DNA from: a virus
Length of the DNA: 29,961 nt
UHGV virus genome: UHGV-0134758
Reading direction: 5' to 3' (one strand)
Made by a program: the position numbers and the translations under genes. Position 1 is the stretch's first letter. Each line of letters opens with the position of its first letter. Below are positions 5,228 to 29,961 of the stretch, in pieces. The notes below the pieces were generated by a model, which worked only from the letters and a program-made list of their open reading frames with translations, had not been told where the DNA came from and made no database searches.

Positions 5228-8221
5228 ATGAGCTTAAGCGATCAGGTGGTAATGGCCACCAGCATAGAAACGCTGATCGAGCTGCTAAAGAACCTGCCCG
5301 ATTATGGGCGGGTTTCGTATGTGGTGACAGCGAAGGGAGACGAGGTAAAAACGGCGTTTGATATCGTCGATGCCTCAGCTCTTTTGGTATCCAATACTCT
5401 GGATGGGAAAATTAATCCTGACTATCCCCAGGAACTTCAGCCGCGCGACCGGACCCGCGCATCCAGCCTTCTTCAGGTTAACCAGATATCCAAAGATTTG
5501 CGGCCTGCTCAGCTTACTGACTCCGGTTTATCCAGCCATGGCGCGCCGATAATTGGTGAGGACAATGCCGTTGAGTCAGGTAATGGGCGGACCATGGGGA
5601 TCATTAAAGCCTATCAGGACGGTAATGCGGATCGGTATCGGGAGTACCTGATTGAACATGCGACCGAATTCGGCATACGGCCTGAAAGGGTTGAATCAAT
5701 GACGGCTCCGGTACTGGTGCGCCGCCGGTTAACGAAGGTTGACCGTGTTCAGTTTGCCAAGGACTCAAATATTTCTGATCTCCAGGAAATGGCAGCCAGT
5801 GAAAAGGCTTTTGTTGATGCCGACAGCATAACTCCGGCGATGATGGCGCTGTTTAACCCGTCAGAAAGCGGAGATCTGCTTAGCCGCAGTAATGACGCGT
5901 TTATTCGCGGATTCATGACGCAAGTTGGTGCCACACAGGCGGCTGGACTTGTAACTGAAGATGGGCGACCAACACGGCAACTTGTTGACCGGATACAAAA
6001 CGCGATCTTTGCCAAGGCATATATGGATGCGCGCCTGGTAAGGATGGTTGCAGAAGAACCTGATCCGGATATGCGTAATGTTCTGACGGCGCTTAATGCG
6101 GCGGCCAATGATTTTGTCCAGATGCAGGCTTTATCAGGAGAAGCGCACAAGCAGGCTGTGACAACCATCGTTGATGGCATTGAAACAGCGGATAGCCTCG
6201 ATAAAAAGGCGCTGGCGGCATTGAAAGATGCGGTAGACCTGGTAAGGCAATCGAAGGAGTCAGGCCAACATATTACCGATGTTATTGCTCAGGGGGATAT
6301 GTTCAGCGAAACAGCCCCGGAAGTGAAAGCTCTCGCGTTGTTCATCGTCGCGAATAACCGTAGCGCGAAGCGTATGGCCACCGCCTTTAAATTGATGGCT
6401 CAACGTATCAATGATGAGTTACAGCACCAGGGCCAGGCGCTGGGGGATATGTTTGGCGGTGGCGATGTGTCGTTACAGGATATCCTTCGCCAGGTGTCTC
6501 AGGAACTGGAAAACGAAGGCATTCAAGGGATATCCGGCGGTCTTTTCGAGTCCGTTTCCGGCGGTAGTTACAACGGTGTTGCTCCATATACCAGTTTGCT
6601 ATTACATCGGGCATCCGGCATCAAAGACATTATTCATCTGATCAGGCTGCTTTCCCGCACAGATCCCCAGGATGAACAGCTTGTACAAGTGCTTGCGCAT
6701 TTTGTTCGAATGCCTGTTGCCGACGTGAAAAAATGGTGCCGATTATTCGGTATCAGCAATTCGTTACTTCGCGGCTTGTTAAATCACGCATCCTCCCTTG
6801 GGCGCGATGGCTTTGACGAGATAGCGCAGGCGATAAAAAACGGAGATATGCCACCAGCTATTGACTGGTTTTCCATTCGCCCAACCAGGGTGAAAGCATT
6901 CCTTAGCGCGGCGCATTCGGCATCACCATTGGCAGAAATGGTTCAGAGGTTGTCGCTCATATTCACAGACCATAGCGCGTTGGGTGATCTGACTCTGGAC
7001 GAGATGAAAGAAGCCTCCATTCAGTGGGCCGATCAACAAAATGAGGTTAACTCAGACTTCTTGCCAGCATTCAGGAAGGCCGTTAGTAAAGTGGATGATG
7101 CCCGTGGAATTCTGAAAGCATTTAAGGCATTGCAAAGTCGGGTTAATAAACATGTCGGTGATATCGATGGGGTAACGGCGGAAGGCAGGGATATCCTAAA
7201 AGAGCACGGCATAACGCCAGAGTTTATTGATGAGATCAGGACTGATATGCAGCGTGAGGTAGTATCGTCCCTGCAAATCGTAGCCAGAGCGTTGGCGGAT
7301 GCTAATCCGAAGAGTGCGGCCATTGTTAACCGGGTTATTGGTGATATTGAAGCATCGGAGGGCATGGGGGCGCTGAAACTTTTCCTTTCGCGAGCGTTTA
7401 ATCCTAACGGCAATATTCTCCCTGGTATTATTGGTGAGGCTAAAAAGTATGCCAGCGAAGAAGAACTTGAGCATCTTGACCAACTACTTAAGCGATTCTC
7501 ATATAACCCGCAGACACGCTGGCAAATGAATCAGCAAAGTATGGGTTCGGTCCACGAGAAAGTGTTATCTGCCATGAACAGTGCGATCGCCAACTCATCC
7601 GTATCTGAAGAAAAAGCTCTTGAGTGGGCCGACTCTTTTATCACGGAAGAAGTGGAAGAAGCCCGCGCTGGACAGAATGGTGGGATAGACCTGCGCAAGG
7701 AACTTGCTGATATTTATCGCCTGACCGGCGGTAAAATTTCGACCTTATCAAAGGTGGTTCACCACCAGGGAAGGGCATATGCAAATCTAAATGGTGTTGT
7801 TGCTGTCAATTTGAACGATGAAAATGCAAGTGCACTGTGGCACGAGCTGGGTCATCATCTTGAGTACAGTAACCCTGGTTTGTTAGAGAAAGCTAAAGTT
7901 TTTCTTAAGAAAAATATGATTGGAGATAAGCCAGCATTTATAAATACTGGTCAAAAGGGGAAAAAAGAGTGGGTTTTAACTTCATGTCTTAGTGATAGTT
8001 ATATGGGAAGAGTATACCCTGATTTTTCGGTAACACGTTCTGGAAAAATAAACTTCAAAACACCCACTATATCAAAAGCGAGAGCAACGGAAGTCTTCTC
8101 TATGGCGCTTCAGTTATATCATGATAAGGAAGCGTTGGCTGCATCGCTTATGAATGGTGACGGATTGGTCGAATTGTTGTTGGGCGTATCTCAGGAGTTA
8201 AACATTGAAAATTCACGTTGA
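5228..8221 (+). CDS. large dar-operon protein (position of P1 ddrB)
   Basis: 997-aa uninterrupted ORF with start 12 nt after the preceding stop. No catalytic motif recognised by eye. Confidence 0.7.
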   Translation: MSLSDQVVMATSIETLIELLKNLPDYGRVSYVVTAKGDEVKTAFDIVDASALLVSNTLDGKINPDYPQELQPRDRTRASSLLQVNQISKDLRPAQLTDSGLSSHGAPIIGEDNAVESGNGRTMGIIKAYQDGNADRYREYLIEHATEFGIRPERVESMTAPVLVRRRLTKVDRVQFAKDSNISDLQEMAASEKAFVDADSITPAMMALFNPSESGDLLSRSNDAFIRGFMTQVGATQAAGLVTEDGRPTRQLVDRIQNAIFAKAYMDARLVRMVAEEPDPDMRNVLTALNAAANDFVQMQALSGEAHKQAVTTIVDGIETADSLDKKALAALKDAVDLVRQSKESGQHITDVIAQGDMFSETAPEVKALALFIVANNRSAKRMATAFKLMAQRINDELQHQGQALGDMFGGGDVSLQDILRQVSQELENEGIQGISGGLFESVSGGSYNGVAPYTSLLLHRASGIKDIIHLIRLLSRTDPQDEQLVQVLAHFVRMPVADVKKWCRLFGISNSLLRGLLNHASSLGRDGFDEIAQAIKNGDMPPAIDWFSIRPTRVKAFLSAAHSASPLAEMVQRLSLIFTDHSALGDLTLDEMKEASIQWADQQNEVNSDFLPAFRKAVSKVDDARGILKAFKALQSRVNKHVGDIDGVTAEGRDILKEHGITPEFIDEIRTDMQREVVSSLQIVARALADANPKSAAIVNRVIGDIEASEGMGALKLFLSRAFNPNGNILPGIIGEAKKYASEEELEHLDQLLKRFSYNPQTRWQMNQQSMGSVHEKVLSAMNSAIANSSVSEEKALEWADSFITEEVEEARAGQNGGIDLRKELADIYRLTGGKISTLSKVVHHQGRAYANLNGVVAVNLNDENASALWHELGHHLEYSNPGLLEKAKVFLKKNMIGDKPAFINTGQKGKKEWVLTSCLSDSYMGRVYPDFSVTRSGKINFKTPTISKARATEVFSMALQLYHDKEALAASLMNGDGLVELLLGVSQELNIENSR

Positions 8222-8759
8222 AGTTCCGCCATGTCATGCGGCCATTGTTGAATACGTTGATGATGCGCCGCTGAAAATTATTTCTGGCGACATCACAGAA
8301 GACATGATAGCGAATGCTATAAATCGGGTAATTCCTGATGAAAGCCTAAAAATAGTTAATACGCTTGATGCACCTGGTGTGCATGTGCTTCTGACATTAC
8401 AGCAGGTTTGTGGATGGAACATATACTGGCCTGGTTGGGATGATGAAGAAGATCTTATTGTCAGAATTAATATTGCCACCCCATTTGGGGAAACAGCGCT
8501 TGTTGAGTATGGCGACGACGAACCGCTAAAAATTATTTCCGGTGATATTACCGAAATCATGATTGAAGAAGCGATCGCTGGTGCAAGTCCTGGAGGTTAT
8601 TTAGGGTTGGTTAACACCCTTGATGCATCTGGCGTAGAGATTCTTCGAACACTGAATTATTTTGCTGGCTGGTTTGTTGATTGGCCTGTGGTTGAGGGTG
8701 GCGATGAAGATGACGACGACGATGATTTGGATATCCATATTGCTCCGTACGTAAATTGA
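8205..8759 (+). CDS. hypothetical acidic protein with internal tandem duplication
   Basis: Two copies of an approx. 55-aa module (AAIVEYVDDAPLKIISGDITEDMIANAI... and TALVEYGDDEPLKIISGDITEIMIEEAI...), then a poly-Asp tail (DEDDDDDD). Start overlaps the preceding ORF by 17 nt. Confidence 0.55.
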   Translation: MKIHVEVPPCHAAIVEYVDDAPLKIISGDITEDMIANAINRVIPDESLKIVNTLDAPGVHVLLTLQQVCGWNIYWPGWDDEEDLIVRINIATPFGETALVEYGDDEPLKIISGDITEIMIEEAIAGASPGGYLGLVNTLDASGVEILRTLNYFAGWFVDWPVVEGGDEDDDDDDLDIHIAPYVN

Positions 8760-8764
8760 ACAAA

Positions 8765-8788
8765 CCCCGCCGATTGGCGGGGTTTGTT
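8765..8788 (+). terminator. rho-independent terminator
   Basis: ccccgcc-gatt-ggcgggg stem-loop followed by tttgtt, 6 nt after the stop at 8759. Confidence 0.7.
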
Positions 8789-9090
8789 CCTAGCGTGCCG
8801 TAAAATACTACCCTTCAGGTTTAATTGACATGGTGTTTTCAATGTTATGCTATAGATTCATTTTGCTTGCTAATTTATATCAAAATTTATTGAACCAATT
8901 GTTGAGTACATTTTAAATCAGCAACTCTTAAATTTTGCTAATTAATTAGTCAGCTATCTATCGCTGTGGTTGATATTAATGTGCTGGTGTAACGTGTTTT
9001 TATATTGTGCTGTTGTCTCTGGTTGCGATTTGGTCTTAGTGTTATTTCTTGCTCTGTTTATTAATCAATTGGTTTACAGTGATGTTTTTT

Positions 9091-9106
9091 TGTGATTTCG
9101 ATCACG
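9091..9106. promoter_or_regulatory. CRP-like site (tgtgatttcgatcacg)
   Basis: Matches TGTGA-N6-TCAC of the CRP consensus in the AT-rich region about 115 nt upstream of the porin start. Hand-counted coordinates. Confidence 0.3.
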
Positions 9107-9218
9107 AAAATATCTCGATTTTTATTTGCAAAACTTGAAACGCAAATCCAAAAACGATAAATATTTCCTCGCAGTGACTTCTTTTCTGTTGAAAAGTTCA
9201 ATCTAAAGGGCAAAAAAA

Positions 9219-10331
9219 ATGAAAAAAATTACAGTGGCACTTTCTACGGTTGCAGCATCTGTTCTGATGGCAATGTCTGCACAAGCGGCAGAAATCTATA
9301 ACAAAGACGGTAACAAACTGGATCTGTACGGCAAAGTTAATGCAGAGCATTACTTCTCTTCTTCAGCTAGTAATGACGGAGATAAAACTTATGCTCGTAT
9401 GGGTTTCAAAGGTGAAACTCAGATTAATGACCAGTTAACCGGTTTTGGTCAGTGGGAGTACGAATTTAAAGGTAACCGTACTGAAACTGAAGGTTCTGAT
9501 AAAGATAAAACTCGTCTTGCGTTTGCAGGACTTCGCTTTGGCGATTATGGTTCGCTCGACTATGGTCGCAACTACGGTGTAGCTTATGATGTTGGCGCTT
9601 GGACTGACGTTCTGCCTGAGTTTGGTGGAGATACCTGGACTCAGACTGATGTATTTATGACCCAGCGTGCTACTGGCGTGGCGACCTATCGTAACAATGA
9701 TTTCTTCGGCCTGGTTGATGGTCTGAACTTTGCTTTGCAGTATCAAGGTAAAAATGATAGTGCTTCAAAAGTGAACAACCCGAAAGGCCGCGAAGCAGTT
9801 GAATCTAATGGTGATGGTTTTGGCCTGTCAGCTACTTACGATTATGAAGGATTTGGCGTTGCTGCAACCTATGCAAAATCTGACCGTACTGATGGGCAGG
9901 TATCCTATGCTAAAAACAGTCATCTGAATGCCTCTGGTAAAACTGCTGAAGTATGGGCTACGGGCCTGAAATATGATGCAAACAACATTTATCTGGCTGC
10001 CACTTATTCTGAAACTCAGAATATGACAGTCTTCGGTGATGATCATATTGCAAACAAAGCGAAAAACTTTGAAGCTGTTGCTCAATACCAGTTCGACTTC
10101 GGCTTGCGTCCGTCCATTGCTTACCTGCACTCTCGCGGTGAAAATATTGGTGCGTTCGGTAATCAGGATCTGGTTGAATACATCGAGGTAGGCACGACCT
10201 ATTACTTCAACAAAAATATGTCCGCTTTCGTTGACTACAAGATCAACCTGATTGATGAAAGTGAATTTACCAAAGCATCTGAGGTTGCAACCGACAACAT
10301 CGTTGCTGTTGGTATGACCTACCAATTCTAA
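9219..10331 (+). CDS. general porin of the OmpC/OmpF/PhoE family (Lc/NmpC-like phage-borne porin)
   Basis: Signal peptide [23 protein letters not shown] then mature [17 protein letters not shown]; conserved blocks GFGQWEYEF and LQYQGKN; C-terminal ...VGMTYQF with terminal Phe. Strongly resembles prophage porins Lc/NmpC from memory. Confidence 0.9.
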
Positions 10332-10486
10332 TTTTGGTAGGTAAGAATATGCGGGAAGGGAGTGATGTCACTGCCCGCATATAGGTGGCACCCTCATGCC
10401 GCCTTTGAAGAGGCAATAAAATTGCCTCTTCTCAATTTAACTTCATGTTATTTATTACCCTTTTATTGATTTGAAACTCTATTGTT

Positions 10487-10513
10487 GGGGCGCTTTATTG
10501 CGCCCATTTTTTT
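10487..10513 (+). terminator. rho-independent terminator
   Basis: gggcgc-tttatt-gcgccc followed by attttttt. A second hairpin (gaagaggcaat/attgcctcttc) lies near 10403-10427. Confidence 0.5.
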
Positions 10514-10539
10514 ACGTAATCGAGCAGCTTCCAGTTCTC

Positions 10540-11028
10540 TCAAAACGGAATATCGTCGTCAAAGTCCATTGGAGGTTCGTTATTGGCGTTGCTCTGAGGT
10601 TTACCTCCACCACTGTATTGCTGGTAGTTTTGAGATTGGTTTGATTGCCCCCAGCCATTTGAGGGCTGTGAATCGTCACGGCGAGCGCCGATCATTTGTA
10701 TGGTGCCGCCCTGGCTGATGATAATTTCCGTCGTGTAACGTTCTACACCGGCGTCATCTGTCCACTTACGGGTTTTAAGTTTCCCTTCGATGTAGACCTG
10801 AGAACCTTTTCGTAAATACTCACTCGCAATTTCAGCAATTTTTCCGAACAAAATGACTTTATGCCATTCTGTTTGCTCTTTCTGTTGGCCTGTTTGCTTG
10901 TCGCGCCATGATTCATTCGTTGCGATGCTGAGTCTTCCGACCGCTCCGCCATTTGGTATATACCTGATCTCCGGGTCTTGCCCCAAGGTACCAATCAGGA
11001 TGACTTTGTTTACACCGCGTTGTGCCAC
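10540..11028 (-). CDS. ssb: single-stranded DNA-binding protein
   Basis: OB-fold N-terminus ([61 protein letters not shown]), Gly/Gln-rich linker and the acidic tail [11 protein letters not shown] start. Confidence 0.95.
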
Positions 11029-11047: not shown

Positions 11048-11064
11048 AAATTTATTAGAGCAAT
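11048..11064 (-). promoter_or_regulatory. C1-repressor operator-like 17-mer, 17/17 to ATTGCTCTAATAAATTT
   Basis: Plus strand reads aaatttattagagcaat, the reverse complement of the P1 C1 operator consensus as I recall it. Sits in the divergent ssb/lyz intergenic region. Confidence 0.55.
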
Positions 11065-22085: not shown

Positions 22086-22330
22086 AAAAGCGATACTACA
22101 CAGTAAAGCATGGGACGCTACGGGCATTACAAGAGTTTGCTGACAAGCATAACGTTGAGGTGCGCAGGGAAGGGGGAAGTAAAGCTCTGCGCATGTACCG
22201 TCCGGACGGGAAATGGCGTACGGTCGTCGATTTCAAAACTAACAGTGTTCCCCAAGGTGTCCGCGATCGGGCATTCGAAGAATGGGAGCAGATCATCATA
22301 GATAACGCATTGCTTCTGAATGCTGATTAA
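22082..22330 (+). CDS. small protein (position of P1 lxc)
   Basis: 82 aa, TTG start overlapping the previous stop (TTGA), GGAGAG 5 nt upstream. Confidence 0.45.
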   Translation: MKKRYYTVKHGTLRALQEFADKHNVEVRREGGSKALRMYRPDGKWRTVVDFKTNSVPQGVRDRAFEEWEQIIIDNALLLNAD

Positions 22331-22382
22331 TAATCATTTAAAGCCCATATGATATGGGCTTAAACAACAGGATCGATATACA

Positions 22383-23423
22383 GTGTTAGTTAAATATATA
22401 GGCGAGAGTTATATGGATAAACCTTGGCCGGGCATGCACATTAGAACATCTTGTCTGGAGGATGGTTTCTTTAGAGCAACGCAACCAAAGTATCTTAATG
22501 ATCCGTCGAGTGAGTCGCGACTTCTTCCATTTTTTAATAAATTTTCACCAGCCGATTACGCATGGGCTAGAAATGAATTTAAGAAAATGCAACGAGATCC
22601 ATCTTATGTCCCATCTATACAAGAGTTAGAGTATTATTTAAAACCTTGCGGGAAACGATACGGAGAGGATTTTCCACACTTGTTAATCAATGAAGGTTTT
22701 ACCTCAATGGATTCATATGATGAATCTAAACTCCAAGAAATAGTAACGTACCTTAACGATTATTTAGTAGAAGCCGTAAGCTGTCATCTTGGTGTGTTCT
22801 CTCTATCAAAAAGTGATTGCAATCTACACATGTGGACTCATTATGCATCGATAGGAAAGGGGTTTGCTGTAGTTTTCGATGAAACACACGATTTTTTCAA
22901 AATATATCGGCCGTGTGATGTTAGTTATAATCCAGAAGATAGAGCATCTGTAACCTATTATAAAGGCGCTGTGCGATTTAATGGCTATCCTGCGCCATCG
23001 AGGAATATAGATATAAAGAATAAAGATAATACATTGCATGGGATCTTAAATCGAGATTCAGTTCGCGAGCTTTTTATTAATAGGCTTCTTTATACAAAAG
23101 GTGAAGAGTGGCTTCCTGAAAATGAAAGTAGAATTATTTTTCCATTGGCTGATTGCGAGAGAAAAATAGGAAGTATTGTCTCTCCATCGATTGATGACTG
23201 CCTATTAAATGAGTATCCTGATGTTTTTCATGACTATCATGAAATTAACTTAAAGAAAATTCCTTTTTCTGCATTCAAGCAAATTACCTTAGGGTATAAC
23301 ATGACTGAAAAAGATAAAAATATAATTTTAGATAAAGTTAGTTCGAATAAAGAATTGTCTCACGTCAACGTATTACATTCAAAACTTGATATATACGGAA
23401 AGGTTGTGGTTAAGCCCATGTAA
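22383..23423 (+). CDS. DUF2971-like protein of unknown function; candidate single-gene anti-phage defence / abortive-infection cargo
   Basis: Markedly AT-rich 346-codon ORF (alternative ATG at 22413). Motifs FRATQPKYLNDPSSE and CNLHMWTHYASIGKGFAVVFD resemble the two DUF2971 signature blocks as I recall them. Isolated between the lxc-position ORF and the convergent mat-position ORF. Confidence 0.7.
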   Translation: MLVKYIGESYMDKPWPGMHIRTSCLEDGFFRATQPKYLNDPSSESRLLPFFNKFSPADYAWARNEFKKMQRDPSYVPSIQELEYYLKPCGKRYGEDFPHLLINEGFTSMDSYDESKLQEIVTYLNDYLVEAVSCHLGVFSLSKSDCNLHMWTHYASIGKGFAVVFDETHDFFKIYRPCDVSYNPEDRASVTYYKGAVRFNGYPAPSRNIDIKNKDNTLHGILNRDSVRELFINRLLYTKGEEWLPENESRIIFPLADCERKIGSIVSPSIDDCLLNEYPDVFHDYHEINLKKIPFSAFKQITLGYNMTEKDKNIILDKVSSNKELSHVNVLHSKLDIYGKVVVKPM

Positions 23424-23455
23424 TAATACGCTTATGTCTACACTTCATGATAAAT

Positions 23456-23477
23456 ACCTTCCTTAACTTAGGAAGGT
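23456..23477. terminator. hairpin (accttcc-ttaactta-ggaaggt) between convergent genes
   Basis: Lies between the stop of the 346-aa ORF (23423) and the stop of the minus-strand ORF (23521); the following sequence is T-rich. Confidence 0.4.
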
Positions 23478-23520
23478 TAGTTGTAGGTTTACGCAGAAAG
23501 TAACAAATAACCTTCGTAGG

Positions 23521-24162
23521 TTATAGAATATTATTCTTTCCGGTGAGTATTCCTTGAGGAACTCTAGCGCATCCCATAATTTGAGTTTTCTTGATGATGT
23601 TTATATATGACGCTATCAGCGATGAGTCATCACGACTATCCACTTCACAAGCCATTGCCCTGATGTAGTCGGCGCTGGCAACGTTGTTGTATTCCGTCGC
23701 AAAGCAACAGAGTAACGTCAGAACATGCTCTGTCGTTATTTCGCTCCAGTTGATGTTGAAAAATTCATCGCCTTTTTTATCGTGTTCGGAATCGAAGATG
23801 CTTTGGTGGAGGATGTATTTGCCGGATTCCTTGCGCGGTAACTTGATTGCTTTCTGGCGTTCCAGCTCCTTATAAATCTGCATTGCCTCAATTAGTACCG
23901 GCCTGCCGTTCATGAAGGGATCGCGCAACCTTACACGCTGGCCAACTCGACCAGTAATAAAGCTGTTTTCCTCTTCCACCAGCACGATAAAACCCTTTTC
24001 CTCTTTTTCTCGCAATTCGCGCAGCAGCTGGAGTTCCATGTCGCGGCGGCGTTCAGGGTAGCTGGTCCGCTCAGCCATTATCAGCTCGTTATTGATCCAT
24101 GCAGCAGTCATTGACGCCGGTTTGCCGACGCTCATCGAAACAACGCATATTTTCTTATCCAT
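23521..24162 (-). CDS. hypothetical protein (position of P1 mat, particle maturation)
   Basis: ATG at 24162 with AGGGG 5 nt upstream (the track's GTG start is at 24189). The late-promoter-like motif lies about 140 nt upstream. Confidence 0.5.
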   Translation of the reverse strand: MDKKICVVSMSVGKPASMTAAWINNELIMAERTSYPERRRDMELQLLRELREKEEKGFIVLVEEENSFITGRVGQRVRLRDPFMNGRPVLIEAMQIYKELERQKAIKLPRKESGKYILHQSIFDSEHDKKGDEFFNINWSEITTEHVLTLLCCFATEYNNVASADYIRAMACEVDSRDDSSLIASYINIIKKTQIMGCARVPQGILTGKNNIL

Positions 24163-25520: not shown

Positions 25521-26552
25521 CTAATCGCCATCTTCCAGCAGGCGCACCATTGCCCCTGTTTCACTATCCAGGTTACGGATATAGTTCATGACAATATTTA
25601 CATTGGTCCAGCCACCAGCTTGCATGATCTCCGGTATTGAAACTCCGGCGCGGGCCATATCTCGCGCGGCTCCGACACGGGCACTATGTCCAGACCAGGC
25701 CAGGTATCTCTGACCAGAGTCATCCTTAGCGCCGTAAATCAATCGATGAGTTGCTTCAAAAATCCCTTCCAGGGCGCGAGTTGATAGCTGGCTGGTGGAT
25801 GATGGCGAGGCAACACCATTTTTTCTGACCCGGCAAAACAAGTAGTTATTAGGATCATCAGCCACACCAGAGACGGAAATCCATCGGTCGACCAGTTTAG
25901 TTACCCCCAGGCTAAGTGCCTTCTCTACACCTGCGGTGCTAACCAGCGTTTTCGTTCTGCCAATATGGATTAACATTCTCCCACCGTCAGTACGTGAGAT
26001 ATCTTTAACCCTGATCCTGGCAATTTCGGCTATACGTAACAGGGTGTTATAAGCAATCCCCAGAAATGCCAGATTACGTACATCCTGGCAGCGATCGCTA
26101 TTTTCCATGAGTGAACGAACCTGGTCGAAATCAGTGCGTTCGAACGCTAGTGCCTGTTTTGCACGTTCACCGGCATCAACGTTTTCTTTTCGGATCCGCC
26201 GCATGACCAGTGAAACAGCATTGCTGTCACTTGGTCGTGGCAGCCCGGACCGACGATGAAGCATGTTTAGCTGGCCCAAATGTTGCTGGATAGTTTTTAC
26301 TGCCAGACCGCGCGCCTGAAGATATAGAAGATAATCGCGAACATCTTCAGGTTCTGCGGGAAACCATTTCCGGTTGTTCAACTTGCACCATGCCGCCCAT
26401 GACCGGCAAACGGACAGAAGCATTTTCCAGGTATGCTCAGAAAAAGCCTGGCGATCCCTGAACATATCCATCAGGTTCTTGCGAACCTCATCACTCGTTG
26501 CATCGACCGGCAATGCAGGCAAATTTTGGTGTACGGTCAGTAAATTGGACAT
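25521..26552 (-). CDS. cre: Cre tyrosine site-specific recombinase
   Basis: 343 aa, MSNLLTVHQNLPALPVDATSDEVRKNLMDMFRDRQAFSEHTWKMLLSVCRSWAAWCKLNNRKWFPAEPEDVRDYLLYLQARGLAVKTIQQHL...MVRLLEDGD. Essentially the P1 Cre sequence as I know it, with the cognate loxP about 420 bp upstream. Confidence 0.97.
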   Translation of the reverse strand: MSNLLTVHQNLPALPVDATSDEVRKNLMDMFRDRQAFSEHTWKMLLSVCRSWAAWCKLNNRKWFPAEPEDVRDYLLYLQARGLAVKTIQQHLGQLNMLHRRSGLPRPSDSNAVSLVMRRIRKENVDAGERAKQALAFERTDFDQVRSLMENSDRCQDVRNLAFLGIAYNTLLRIAEIARIRVKDISRTDGGRMLIHIGRTKTLVSTAGVEKALSLGVTKLVDRWISVSGVADDPNNYLFCRVRKNGVASPSSTSQLSTRALEGIFEATHRLIYGAKDDSGQRYLAWSGHSARVGAARDMARAGVSIPEIMQAGGWTNVNIVMNYIRNLDSETGAMVRLLEDGD

Positions 26553-27375: not shown

Positions 27376-27585
27376 ATGGCTTTCATTCAACCAACCATCG
27401 ACGACGTTAGACATTGCTCTAACGCTTTATCTGTAGATCCCACCGAAACCGACGCTGCCCGCGCCATTGCTGAACACTACTCAAAGATATCCAATCAGGA
27501 GTACCGCATCACCCAAGACGACCTGGATGACCTCACTGACACAATCGAATATCTCATGGCAACTAACCAGTTAGACTCACAATAA
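27376..27585 (+). CDS. coi: Coi-like C1 inactivator
   Basis: 69-aa acidic protein immediately upstream of c1, GTGAGG Shine-Dalgarno. Size and position match P1 Coi from memory. Confidence 0.7.
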   Translation: MAFIQPTIDDVRHCSNALSVDPTETDAARAIAEHYSKISNQEYRITQDDLDDLTDTIEYLMATNQLDSQ

Positions 27586-27695: not shown

Positions 27696-28547
27696 ATGAT
27701 AAATTATGTCTACGGCGAACAACTGTACCAAGAGTTCGTCAGCTTCAGGGATCTCTTTCTAAAAAAAGCTGTTGCACGCGCCCAACACGTTGATGCCGCC
27801 AGCGACGGTCGTCCTGTACGCCCGGTTGTCGTTCTGCCGTTCAAAGAAACGGACAGCATTCAGGCTGAAATTGATAAATGGACTTTAATGGCGCGGGAAC
27901 TGGAACAGTATCCAGACCTCAATATCCCAAAAACTATTTTATACCCTGTGCCTAACATCCTTCGCGGTGTGCGTAAGGTTACGACTTATCAGACAGAAGC
28001 TGTGAACAGCGTCAACATGACCGCTGGCCGCATTATTCATCTGATTGATAAGGACATTCGCATCCAGAAAAGCGCTGGGATCAATGAGCACAGTGCGAAA
28101 TACATTGAGAACCTGGAAGCAACAAAAGAGCTAATGAAGCAGTACCCGGAGGATGAAAAATTCCGTATGCGCGTACACGGCTTTAGCGAAACAATGCTGC
28201 GCGTCCATTACATTTCCAGTAGCCCTAACTACAATGATGGTAAATCAGTTAGTTACCATGTGCCGCTATGTGGTGTGTTTATCTGCGATGAAACTCTCCG
28301 AGATGGAATCATCATCAACGGTGAATTTGAGAAAGCAAAATTTAGCCTTTATGACTCCATAGAACCGATCATCTGCGACCGCTGGCCGCAGGCAAAAATA
28401 TATCGCCTGGCAGATATTGAAAATGTAAAAAAACAAATTGCCATCACTCGCGAAGAGAAAAAGGTCAAATCAGCCGCATCTGTTACACGCAGCCGTAAAA
28501 CTAAGAAGGGGCAGCCAGTAAACAGCAACCCCGAAAGCGCGCAATAA
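27696..28547 (+). CDS. c1: C1-like primary immunity repressor
   Basis: 283 aa (the length I recall for P1 C1), GGAGGAGGA Shine-Dalgarno, basic C-terminal tail. Its cognate operator-like 17-mers recur across the window. Confidence 0.85.
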   Translation: MINYVYGEQLYQEFVSFRDLFLKKAVARAQHVDAASDGRPVRPVVVLPFKETDSIQAEIDKWTLMARELEQYPDLNIPKTILYPVPNILRGVRKVTTYQTEAVNSVNMTAGRIIHLIDKDIRIQKSAGINEHSAKYIENLEATKELMKQYPEDEKFRMRVHGFSETMLRVHYISSSPNYNDGKSVSYHVPLCGVFICDETLRDGIIINGEFEKAKFSLYDSIEPIICDRWPQAKIYRLADIENVKKQIAITREEKKVKSAASVTRSRKTKKGQPVNSNPESAQ

Positions 28548-28553
28548 ATTATG

Positions 28554-28575
28554 CCCGGCATCAACCGGGCATTCT
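28554..28575. terminator. hairpin between convergent c1 and ant
   Basis: atgcccgg-catcaa-ccgggcat in the 32-nt gap between the two stop codons. Confidence 0.55.
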
Positions 28576-28579
28576 TCCA

Positions 28580-29698
28580 TTATTCAGCCGCCACCGGTTT
28601 TAACAAGCCAGCATCGAGCAGTTTACGCGTCAACCACTGTTGGCCTTTCCCCGTTAATTGAGGCGTCAGCCGTATCTGATAGCCATCTTCATCATCCAGT
28701 ACCACTTCTTTCACCGTGAAATACCCGGCGTTGATGTACTGCTGGAACGGCACATTTTTACGTCCGCCGGACGCAATCAGGATGCCGTTCTCCCGTAACC
28801 AGGCAAACAGCGCGTTTTGCTTAAGTCCAACAACCTTTGCAAAATTCCCAATCAGGATCCCTTTAGCTACTGATACCCGGTCGGCAAAATCGACTTTAGG
28901 AGCGGCGGCCACCAGCTGCTGATTTAGCTGGTGGGCTTTCTGTTCCAGAAGCTGCTTTTGTTCAGCCAGTTCGGCAGCCAGGCGCAGAGCTTCTGGAAGC
29001 GTCTGGGGGATTGCAACCGGTTGCTGTTCTTTTTGTCGGAAGTAGCTGTCTTCCAGTTTTTCAAAGAATGCCCATGCCTGATCGGTTTCGAGCATTTTAG
29101 CGTGGCGGGCTGCGCCGCGTTCCGTCCAGAGGATGAGTGAGCGAACATTGCGAGCAATTTTTACAGAGTAGTTTAAAGCTACTCTGTGCTTCAACTCGCG
29201 CAATGATTCTCCTTCAACTTTGAAAAAGTGCTTCCCTTCAACAAAGCGTACTTTGTTCTCATGATGATTCTGGCGAATGCGAATTGTTTCTGTGCCATAC
29301 CCCTTAGCAAGAATCTCGCTCGTCACGACACGTACTCCCTGCCATTCCAGAACGGGAATTTCATCAGGCTGATTTTGAGCAACCACCAGCTCCGATTCCT
29401 GAACTGAAGGTGTATTAATTTTCTCGGATTTAACGTTAGTAGCTTTCATTCTGTGTGCCTCCTTGCGTGTTTCAGCTGCTACGGTTGCGTAATTCAGGTG
29501 CCCCTGTTCGAGCAGGTATTCGCGGATATCAGACAGCAGGATGCGGTGAACCGCGTTCTTGTCCTTTCTCCGGTAAAGTTGCTTGGTGATCATGAAGTAG
29601 TTGGCAATAACGCCCGGTATATCCCTGGTACTGATACAGGCTGTGTGCTGTTCAATTGCCTCGATCATCTCTTCACGGGTGACTAATGACGTTCTCAT
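28580..29698 (-). CDS. ant: antirepressor (Ant1/Ant2-like, KilA-N / ORF6N-type N-terminal region and antirepressor C-terminal region)
   Basis: 372-aa ORF with an in-frame internal start at Met84 (approx. nt 29449) preceded by AAGGAGG, giving a second product of about 289 aa. This two-start architecture matches what I recall for P1 ant1/ant2. Confidence 0.7.
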   Translation of the reverse strand: MRTSLVTREEMIEAIEQHTACISTRDIPGVIANYFMITKQLYRRKDKNAVHRILLSDIREYLLEQGHLNYATVAAETRKEAHRMKATNVKSEKINTPSVQESELVVAQNQPDEIPVLEWQGVRVVTSEILAKGYGTETIRIRQNHHENKVRFVEGKHFFKVEGESLRELKHRVALNYSVKIARNVRSLILWTERGAARHAKMLETDQAWAFFEKLEDSYFRQKEQQPVAIPQTLPEALRLAAELAEQKQLLEQKAHQLNQQLVAAAPKVDFADRVSVAKGILIGNFAKVVGLKQNALFAWLRENGILIASGGRKNVPFQQYINAGYFTVKEVVLDDEDGYQIRLTPQLTGKGQQWLTRKLLDAGLLKPVAAE

Positions 29699-29916
29699 AG
29701 TCCCTCCTGAGCAGAATCGTTAACAGGGAGGCACCAGTAACTGAGAGAATTGCGTGAATCAGTGGAAAAACGGGCAGAGAAAATGCAGGGAGCATCCGGA
29801 AGCTGAGAGCGAGCCTCATCTTCTGTTGTTGCGATAACGAAGTGATAGTGACGTTTTTGGCAGGAGTAAAAGCGCCAGATAAATTCAGGATGAGTAGGGG
29901 TAGGGATAGTAGCCAT
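29695..29916 (-). CDS. icd: small ORF overlapping the ant start (Icd-like, interference with cell division)
   Basis: 73 codons; stop overlaps the ant ATG (ATGA); AAGGAGG before its start. Matches the icd-ant arrangement of the P1 immI region from memory. Confidence 0.5.
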   Translation of the reverse strand: MATIPTPTHPEFIWRFYSCQKRHYHFVIATTEDEARSQLPDAPCIFSARFSTDSRNSLSYWCLPVNDSAQEGL

Positions 29917-29961
29917 AATGGCAGCCTCCTTTTGCTAATTTAAGGAGCTACCGCGTGAGGT

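Follow-up and report, generated by a model that had tools for sequence, protein, structure and literature searches.

The virus genome UHGV-0134758 is very probably that of a P1-like phage-plasmid in which a second, complete immI-type operon separates pacB from c1 as an insertion; the region downstream of the c1 repressor gene would be the 3' two-thirds of this operon. Judged from their sequences, the module and P1 immI are true paralogues. Within the window (the whole 29,961-nt stretch of DNA that was analyzed), its parts have the same order and sizes as those of P1 and P7 immI, including a 73-codon icd, an ATGA overlap and an ant2 start at codon 84 (Table 1), and relatives also share with immI a C1 operator/promoter, an a1/b1 leader element, a C4 RNA (RF01695) and perfectly complementary a/b sites. 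The cassette differs from P1 and P7 immI in its site (pacB-c1, not sim-kilA), in having an ORF6N domain as the central third of Ant, and in a leader element that scores as isrK (RF01394) and not as c4-a1b1 (RF03163). Its C4 recognition sequences differ as well: b is GCAAAAGG and a, which would lie beyond the window end, TTGAGAC, whereas those of P1 are GTTAGTG and TTGACAG.

Table 1. Features of the c1-ant-icd region in the window
Feature	Position	Strand	Remarks
coi (C1 inactivator; part of immC)	27376..27585	+	69-aa ORF; homologous position annotated coi in RCS47, P1 and P7
c1 (primary repressor)	27696..28547	+	283 aa; convergent with ant-icd
GC-rich hairpin	28551..28572	.	in the 32 bp that separate the stop codons of c1 and ant
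ant (ant1-type antirepressor)	28580..29698	-	372-aa ORF, intact
ant2-type in-frame product (predicted)	28580..29449	-	289 aa; start Met84, ATG 29449-29447
icd	29695..29916	-	73 codons; stop overlaps ant ATG
icd ribosome-binding site and c4 target b2	29925..29935	-	SD AAGGAGG 29925-29931; b2 GCAAAAGG 29928-29935, overlapping SD
Leader hairpin (predicted)	29920..29952	-	GGUAGCUCCUU...AAGGAGGCUGCC; SD pairs with upstream CUCCUU
Last leader bases within the window	29953..29961	-	window end lies 45 nt upstream of icd ATG

Coding regions of the cassette

The initial annotation had described a 372-aa antirepressor ORF convergent with c1, a second in-frame start at Met84 behind an AAGGAGG, and an ant ATG overlapping the stop of a 73-codon icd-like ORF, and all of these are present. 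Its assignment of the module to the immI type is borne out by alignment with P1. Icd is 79% identical to P1 Icd, which also has 73 aa (E = 2e-40), and matches the NCBIfam model phage_ICD_like with 49.9 bits (cutoff 25); Ant is 55% identical to P1 Ant1 overall (E = 1e-129). The icd stop and the ant1 start share the ATGA at 29695-29698, and P1 has an equal 4-nt overlap. A Shine-Dalgarno (SD) sequence for ant1, AGGAGGG, lies within icd (29702-29708), and ant1 is probably coupled translationally to icd through the ATGA overlap. The SD sequence of Met84 (29458-29464) is separated from its ATG by a spacer of 8 nt, and the whole SD-spacer-ATG is unchanged in 11 of 12 relatives, the twelfth having one change in the spacer. 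P1 ant2 likewise begins at codon 84 of ant1, and two products, Ant1 and an Ant2 starting at Met84, are predicted here as in P1-type immI.

Similarity between Ant and P1 Ant1 is unevenly distributed along the protein. Residues 1-84 are about 62% identical and residues 228-370 about 90% identical to P1 Ant1, both segments being homologous, whereas the central 140 aa are unrelated to it and instead 50-68% identical to antirepressors of Stx1/Stx2-converting phages. Pfam places an ORF6N domain at residues 116-202 (5e-19) and an ANT/KilAC domain (PF03374) at residues 260-361 (1.8e-31). By these comparisons Ant is a mosaic of a P1 Ant1-like N-terminus, an ORF6N center and a KilAC C-terminus. Substitutions relative to the relatives are mostly synonymous in icd, in the Ant1-only N-terminus and in the Ant C-terminus; the 83 Ant1-only codons, for example, show 7-16 synonymous versus 1-3 non-synonymous changes. 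This pattern indicates that the N-terminal and KilAC parts shared with P1 Ant1/Ant2 are under purifying selection.

With an ORF6N domain in place of its central third, Ant is not guaranteed to bind C1. The mosaic protein might act through ORF6N on the repressor of another resident prophage rather than on P1 C1, in which case a P1-like plasmid could induce or sense co-resident lambdoid prophages. The resemblance of the center to Stx-phage antirepressors and its dissimilarity to P1 Ant1 would agree with such a role, and antirepressors of Gifsy-type phages do act across prophages (PMC4825925). It is nevertheless very improbable, given the conservation and purifying selection of the N-terminal and KilAC parts, the P1 C1 operator that precedes the operon in relatives, and its place in the P1 immunity region. 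Moreover, a premature stop of ant in plasmids with a deleted c4 (see below) suggests that Ant harms the maintenance of the P1-like plasmid itself. P1 C1 is the presumed target of Ant. The C1 protein of the window is identical to P1 C1.100 at 281 of 283 residues and matches the NCBIfam equivalog phage_rep_C1 with 608.8 bits. The hairpin between the two genes is terminator-like (ATGCCCGGTTGATGCCGGGCAT followed by AATTTATT on the minus strand) and is kept in RCS47; it is likely, from its sequence, to be a terminator shared by the convergent c1 and ant.

Distribution of the c1-ant junction

In the P1 reference, the convergent pacB ends 24 bp past c1, and immI lies ~45 kb off, beside sim/kilA, in agreement with the initial annotation, which had placed c4-icd-ant of P1 far from c1 and packaging genes after c1. 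The view that the window has a different immunity layout holds against the P1 and P7 references; it does not hold against P1-like phages in general. The c1-ant junction occurs in 385 of the 702 c1-bearing PLSDB plasmids and in RCS47 (NC_042128, the exemplar of Punavirus RCS47), vB_EcoM-673R5 and JL22; adjacency of c1 and ant in reference P1-like genomes is what the initial annotation had named as grounds for giving up its claim. Venturini et al. 2019 (PMC6906374) had already noted an insertion of ant between pacB and c1 in RCS47 and in plasmid pTZ20_1P. A rare or novel layout is ruled out by these plasmid counts together with that report. The c1-ant layout is thus already known and common in P1-like phage-plasmids, and is no oddity but the majority layout among sequenced P1-like plasmids, the P1/P7 references being the minority.

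Nor is the module a relocated immI. All phages checked (RCS47, 673R5, JL22 and phi456) retain the canonical sim-c4-icd-ant1/2-kilA region as well, so in these the c1-adjacent module is an added copy. The canonical position between sim and kilA-repL was not found for the module, which sits between c1 and, in relatives, pacB; this difference concerns map position and not mechanism. RCS47 carries the same cassette at the same site, with 96% identity over coi-c1-ant-icd and 89% identity of the Ant protein, but has the b2 variant GTCAAAGG where the window has GCAAAAGG, and the middle of the window ant (~29144-29290) does not align to RCS47.

Upstream regions in relatives

An Rfam scan of the whole window at gathering thresholds found no RNA family, C4 included, and no C1 operator is present within 28548-29961. 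The lack of a c4 match inside the window is explained by the gene sitting beyond the window end: the C4 RNA ends ~26 nt past that point in all intact relatives, as expected from the earlier statement that any antisense-RNA gene is cut off about 45 nt upstream of icd. In RCS47 the upstream region contains a C4 RNA (RF01695, 75.4 bits) and an isrK match (RF01394, 60.2 bits), and a like result was obtained for loci L006-L009 and L010. Over the relatives covered, namely RCS47, E. albertii p2014C-4015-2 and four loci whose leader is exactly that of the window, C4 scores 75-77 bits (gathering threshold 45) and the isrK-like element 60-62 bits (gathering threshold 50), both directly upstream. PGAP names the C4 RNA region "ash family protein".

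Sixteen P1-like IMG/VR loci with the window-type leader have the order pacB-c4-leader-icd-ant-c1. Between pacB and the C4 RNA, these loci carry a C1 operator and promoter, followed by the isrK-like a1/b1 element. The operator TTGCTCTAATAAATTG, homologous to Oc4, stands directly after the pacB stop, and the operator/promoter TGCTCTAATAAATTGTGTTTTTT of the cassette is homologous to P1 Oc4/P2c4. In the relatives the a2 target site comes right beyond the point that corresponds to position 29961, upstream of the leader bases within the window, which itself has no operator, promoter or a2 site for the cassette. Across five distinct specificity combinations, a1 = a2 = rc(a') and b1 = b2 = rc(b'), that is, the target and antisense sequences covary. 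By analogy with these relatives, c4 would be present in this particular genome too.

The closest relatives in the ant center and the leader are plasmids of the L002 type, which have lost lpa-pacAB together with the 5' half of c4; PLSDB has seven of them and, in addition, an IS1 derivative. Because these carry the deletion, this genome could also be without an intact c4. The cassette would then be a decaying remnant of the pCFSAN061772_01 type, with icd-ant placed behind the C1-controlled lpa promoter and free of antisense control, and the element a defective prophage plasmid. Only the deletion-type plasmids and the IS1 derivative match both the last 30 nt of the window and the central ant segment in PLSDB, which speaks for such decay. 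On the other hand, ant of the two c4-deleted plasmids inspected (L002 and L012) bears the premature stop Q206stop, whereas the window ant is intact; in the 16 IMG/VR loci this leader variant is accompanied by an intact c4 and pacB, and intact upstream regions are far commoner (215 plasmids versus 7). We therefore regard a remnant as unlikely. The stop in the c4-deleted plasmids fits with uncontrolled Ant being harmful.

Control of icd translation

At loci that share the window leader, the b' loop of the C4 RNA reads CCUUUUGC and is perfectly complementary to all 8 nt of the site b2, GCAAAAGG; among the C4 loop types compared, b2 matches this loop only. The predicted b'/b2 duplex with CCUUUUGC has an energy of -12.4 kcal/mol, in comparison with -6.5, -4.3 and -1.8 kcal/mol for other c4 types. 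The shuffled-loop control is only moderately convincing, since 17 of 500 shuffles pair equally well, a result of a pyrimidine-rich loop facing a purine-rich SD. Control by a canonical P1 or P7-like c4 is ruled out (complementarity of at most 4 nt, -1.8 to -4.3 kcal/mol). Judged by complementarity, the GCAAAAGG/CCUUUUGC specificity of the cassette is orthogonal to canonical P1 and P7-like c4, and the cassette would thus be a second immunity lock that works independently.

The ctcctt...aaggagg complementarity that the initial annotation saw in the leader is real and buries the SD in a hairpin of -15.1 kcal/mol (minimum free energy), whose arms recur in RCS47-type leaders. Its stability, however, is unremarkable and not beyond chance (z = -1.13; 27 of 200 shuffled sequences fold equally well). 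As a control element, b2 with its overlap of the SD has better support.

This bears on whether icd translation might be controlled mainly within the leader itself, the CUCCUU/AAGGAGG hairpin hiding the ribosome-binding site and a short isrK-like RNA opening it in trans, with C4 not acting as the repressor. Burial of the SD would allow this, an isrK-family element lies upstream in relatives above the Rfam gathering threshold, and in Salmonella IsrK switches on translation of an antirepressor and of the small ORF upstream of it (PMC4825925). Such a mechanism is nonetheless quite unlikely to be the main one: the hairpin is no more stable than shuffles, and a full C4 RNA stands between the isrK-like element and icd, unlike in Gifsy-1. 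With its a1/b1 copies of the a2/b2 sequences, the isrK-like element is complementary to C4 and not to the leader. The two mechanisms need not exclude each other, as the isrK-like element could titrate C4.

The Gifsy-1 isrK-orf45-anrP locus of Salmonella (Hershko-Shalev et al. 2016, PMC4825925) resembles the cassette in three respects: its isrK-family RNA has a terminator of its own, the small ORF that follows is linked in translation to an antirepressor gene, and the ribosome-binding site of this ORF is sequestered in a leader helix. In Gifsy-1, however, isrK and the small ORF are not separated by a C4 RNA, and IsrK pairs with the mRNA to activate its translation, whereas the isrK-like element of the cassette holds decoy copies of the C4 targets. 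The arrangement of Gifsy-1, with isrK directly before the small ORF and complementary to the leader, was not found in the relatives. A Gifsy-1-type module, as the isrK match might suggest, is ruled out, as the P1 a1/b1 leader is also a weak isrK match and a C4 RNA intervenes.

Proposed mechanism and relation to other prophages

A second immI-type operon would, following the intact relatives, be ordered as a C1 operator/promoter (Oc4/P2c4-like), an isrK-like a1/b1 leader element with its own terminator, the C4 antisense RNA, a2/b2, icd, ant1/ant2, and, on the side of c1, a hairpin terminator. If the operon works as P1/P7 immI does, C1 would lower its transcription in a lysogen. The C4 RNA would be excised from the same transcript, and its a' and b' would pair with a2/b2. 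Once C4 is bound, icd would not be translated because b2 overlaps its SD, and Ant would likewise not be made, given the presumed coupling of ant1 to icd at the ATGA. Where there is no C4, or only one of non-matching specificity, as in a fresh infection or with a heteroimmune resident, Icd and Ant1/Ant2 would be made, and Ant would inactivate C1, leading to lytic growth. Both the binding of C1 by Ant and the processing of C4 in the cassette are assumed here from the canonical immI mechanism, in which Ant1/Ant2 inactivate C1 in P1 (PMC8198154, citing Citron & Schuster 1990 and Riedel et al. 1993). The literature searched holds no experimental data on the c1-adjacent cassette.

Phage D6 and D6-like plasmid prophages also have a second c4-icd-antirepressor module. 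This module (PMC6799933; the locus compared, L014, is 99% D6) is identical to the window-type cassette in the C4 a'/b' loops, a2/b2 and the leader, and it too is a second c4-icd region of a plasmid prophage. In contrast, its effector is a 212-aa Rha-family protein (PF09669) and not an ORF6N-KilAC Ant, its Icd is only 68% identical, and its genomic neighborhood is another one. A tentative reading is that P1-like phage-plasmids have two, sometimes three, orthogonal C4/antirepressor locks, with a and b sites reshuffled independently by recombination into at least five combinations, and with the C4 specificity of the c1-adjacent lock exactly that of the second D6-like module. If this is true, C4 RNAs would serve as a combinatorial code of immunity that decides on coexistence and induction among plasmid prophages, also across phage groups, and the isrK-like a1/b1 element would be a built-in C4 sponge. 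In the literature searched, orthogonal locks or a combinatorial C4 code are not described for the c1-adjacent cassette.

These results suggest that clinically widespread P1-like phage-plasmids usually hold a second, differently keyed C4/Ant switch, which could affect superinfection immunity, heteroimmunity and induction among co-resident resistance-carrying P1-like and D6-like elements. Database annotation, with its "ash family protein" label for the C4 region, largely misses this switch: in the c1-adjacent copy of the RCS47 record, only "ant" is annotated, while icd, c4 and the leader RNA are unannotated. The best database identities to the window are 96-99%.

icd and antirepressor genes beside c1

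The window is a segment of a P1-like (Punavirus) phage-plasmid, collinear with P1 apart from three variable spots and the stretch that follows c1. In this stretch an icd gene and an antirepressor gene (ant) form a cassette convergent with c1, and the elements claimed for it in the initial annotation, including the ATGA overlap and the internal Met84 start behind AAGGAGG, are all present in the window. The identities proposed for the two genes also hold: the small ORF is 79% identical with P1 Icd (also 73 aa) and matches NCBIfam phage_ICD_like, and the 372-aa ORF shows 55% identity with P1 Ant1 overall (E = 1e-129). The architecture is exactly that of the annotated P1 genome, where a 73-codon icd shares 4 nt with ant1 and codon 84 of ant1 is the start of ant2.

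Features around c1 and the icd-ant cassette in the window
Feature	Position	Strand	Remark
Cre	25521-26552	-	
Coi	27376-27585	+	
C1	27696-28547	+	281/283 identical to P1 C1.100; NCBIfam C1 equivalog
GC-rich hairpin	28551-28572		in the 32-bp gap downstream of c1
ant ORF	28580-29698	-	372 aa
Met84 internal start of ant	ATG 29449-29447	-	AAGGAGG upstream, 8-nt spacer
icd ORF	29695-29916	-	73 codons; stop overlaps ant ATG as ATGA

Domain by domain, the 372-aa antirepressor is a mosaic relative to P1 Ant1. Residues 1-84 show ~62% identity and residues 228-370, the KilAC/ANT domain (PF03374), ~90% identity with P1 Ant1; between them is an ORF6N domain (PF10543) that has no relationship to P1 Ant1, and this central segment shares 50-68% identity with antirepressors from Stx-converting lambdoid phages. 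The Met84 AAGGAGG-spacer-ATG arrangement is kept across twelve related cassettes (11 identical, 1 with a single spacer change). Compared with related cassettes, the 83 N-terminal codons specific to Ant1 carry 7-16 synonymous and 1-3 non-synonymous changes, the last 140 ant codons 9-17 (1 in the nearly identical E. albertii plasmid p2014C-4015-2) and 0-1, and the icd codons 7-13 and 3-6. Because the substitutions are mostly synonymous, the long and short frames both behave as coding sequence. The icd start codon (29914-29916) is ATG in the window, as it is in RCS47 and E. albertii, and GTG in ten IMG/VR P1-like loci sharing the window leader, which may be a difference in translation efficiency.

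The upstream region in relatives

Upstream of icd, 45 nt remain before the window end, where the initial annotation supposed an antisense RNA gene to be cut off. In phage RCS47, whose coi-c1-ant-icd block shows 96% identity with the window, a C4 antisense RNA (Rfam RF01695, 75.4 bits, gathering 45) indeed lies upstream of icd; however, it is on the same strand and co-transcribed, rather than encoded opposite. Further upstream are an isrK-family element (RF01394, 60.2 bits, gathering 50) and then the pacB stop codon. The same C4 and isrK-family pair is found in four IMG/VR loci containing the window's exact icd leader and in E. albertii p2014C-4015-2, which matches the window at 99.4% identity across the c1-ant junction. 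A search for the c4 variant that should accompany the window-type leader gave 19 loci. Of these, 16 are P1-like, and in them pacB is followed after ~255 nt by C4, then by the window-type leader, icd and ant, with c1 convergent. Just past the pacB stop, P1-like c1-adjacent cassettes bear TTGCTCTAATAAATTGTGTTTTTT, homologous to the Oc4 operator/P2c4 promoter region of P1, TGCTCTAATAAATTTGTATTTTT. The immI leader of P1 itself matches Rfam c4-a1b1 and, weakly, isrK; the isrK-like element of the cassette thus corresponds to the a1/b1 leader. These comparisons identify the module as a putatively complete paralogue of the immI operon, of which the window would hold the 3' part.

In the RCS47 record, icd, c4 and the leader RNA of this copy are all without annotation. 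In E. albertii p2014C-4015-2 (6628-6747) and a second locus, L011 (5208-5327), PGAP calls a CDS for an "ash family protein" where Rfam has the C4 RNA (75 bits), and this probably reflects systematic misannotation of the RNA gene.

C4 specificity and target pairing

In P1 and P7, the immI operon is repressed by C1, and C4 RNA, by pairing with a2/b2, stops icd translation and hence ant expression (PMC8198154); C1 is inactivated by an Ant1-Ant2 complex (PMC8198154, citing Citron & Schuster 1990, Riedel et al. 1993). For eight modules, we set the recognition regions of C4 against their targets. In all of them, a1 and a2 equal the reverse complement of a', and b1 and b2 that of b', with five combinations of a and b sites. 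That all three vary in concert is good evidence, on comparative grounds, for functional C4/target pairing.

Combinations of C4 target sites
Module	a site	b site
P1	TTGACAG	GTTAGTG
P7-like third module in E. albertii	TTGACAG	ACGAATG
RCS47-type cassette	TTGAGAC	GTCAAAGG
L006-type (IMG/VR locus)	TTGGAAC	GCAAAAGG
Most IMG/VR P1-like cassettes and D6's second module	TTGAGAC	GCAAAAGG

The b2 site of the window leader, GCAAAAGG at 29928-29935, overlaps the Shine-Dalgarno sequence AAGGAGG (29925-29931). The computed duplex with the cognate c4 loop is -12.4 kcal/mol, against -6.5 (RCS47-type), -4.3 (P7-like) and -1.8 kcal/mol (P1) for non-cognate loops, although 17 of 500 shuffled loops pair as well as the cognate one, making this control only moderately convincing. 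C4 pairing with b2 over the icd Shine-Dalgarno sequence would block translation of icd, and with it ant, as in P1/P7 immI. Since b2 pairs poorly with the P1 or P7-like loops, the cassette should be blind to canonical c4 and act as an independent immunity lock. The ctcctt/aaggagg complementarity once proposed to sequester this ribosome-binding site does give a predicted leader hairpin (-15.1 kcal/mol), but it is no better than shuffled sequence (z = -1.1); part of b2 may be displayed in the hairpin loop, but the hairpin is not taken as the basis of the mechanism.

In PLSDB, the window is matched through its leader variant and the ant central segment by seven plasmids of the pCFSAN061772_01 type and by an IS1-bearing derivative (L012, 4500-6011). 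All of these lack lpa-pacAB as well as the 5' half of c4. In the seven plasmids, the deletion has joined what is left of c4, its 3' half, to the pdcB/lpa promoter region (L002, 7281-8900), and icd-ant of the deletion type sits behind the C1-controlled lpa promoter. The premature stop (Q206stop) in ant of both deletion-type records inspected, L002 and L012, fits with uncontrolled Ant being deleterious. Because ant is intact in the window and 16 P1-like viral contigs have the same leader beside a c4 that is intact, it is much more likely that the operon of this genome is intact beyond 29961.

Distribution and additional copies

In P1, the pacB and c1 stops are 24 bp apart and immI is ~45 kb away, so the layout claimed to be unlike P1 does differ from P1 and P7. 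It is not distinctive among relatives: RCS47, vB_EcoM-673R5 and JL22 share the c1-ant adjacency, as do 385 of 702 PLSDB plasmids with c1 (55%, contiguous junction), and the upstream region pacB-isrK-c4-icd is intact in 215 PLSDB plasmids. The adjacency, with RCS47 named, is on record in Venturini et al. (PMC6906374). A relocated immI was rejected for RCS47, 673R5, JL22 and phi456, which also keep the canonical sim-c4-icd-ant1/2-kilA region, the cassette being an addition there. E. albertii p2014C-4015-2 bears a third a1b1-c4-icd-ant module beside c8/cre (19-1603; P7-like b loop, CATTCGT), and some P1-like plasmids therefore have three antirepressor modules.

A second c4-icd region has been noted in D6-like prophages (PMC6799933). 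Its C4 a'/b' loops and a2/b2 sites in D6 are exactly those of the P1-like c1-adjacent cassette; however, it drives a 212-aa Rha-family protein, unlike the Ant of the cassette. The shared sites suggest that P1-like and D6-like plasmid prophages may be cross-immune at the level of C4. The D6-type module was seen in locus L014 (3300-5200), which is 99% identical with phage D6 (73574-75489), and in L026. The c1-adjacent cassette belongs to a well-understood kind (P1 immI), is very common and has already been catalogued. What seems under-described in the literature searched is its regulatory anatomy as a whole, the orthogonal, recombining C4 specificities and the one specificity common to it and D6-like prophages.

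Other features of the window

The C1 protein is 99% identical with that of P1 and the c1 DNA only ~95.7%, the differences being nearly all synonymous, a sign that the repressor has been under strong purifying selection in lineages that have diverged. Seven sites in the window match the C1 operator consensus ATTGCTCTAATAAATTT with no more than 3 mismatches (8883, 11048, 14898, 25010, 27048, 27131 and 27585; 0.17 expected by chance). Among them are a perfect site (11048-11064) and the cluster in immC that surrounds coi/c1, and none is within the icd-ant part. An OmpC/NmpC-family porin gene (9219-10331, +; Pfam Porin_1, 5e-148; NCBIfam OmpC subfamily), a P7-like accessory gene, occupies the IS1/isaA/isaB position of P1, and 8213-10540 around it does not align to P1. 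Within 22326-23653, an ORF for a 346-aa DUF2971 protein (22383-23423, +) is located at the res/mod type III restriction-modification site of P1 and may represent a defence or anti-defence swap. Positions 1-1506, also without alignment to P1, are a variant of the tail-fibre/C-segment end, with a tail-fibre-assembly ORF (63-518, +; Caudo_TAP) overlapped by a hexapeptide-transferase-like ORF (482-1045, -).
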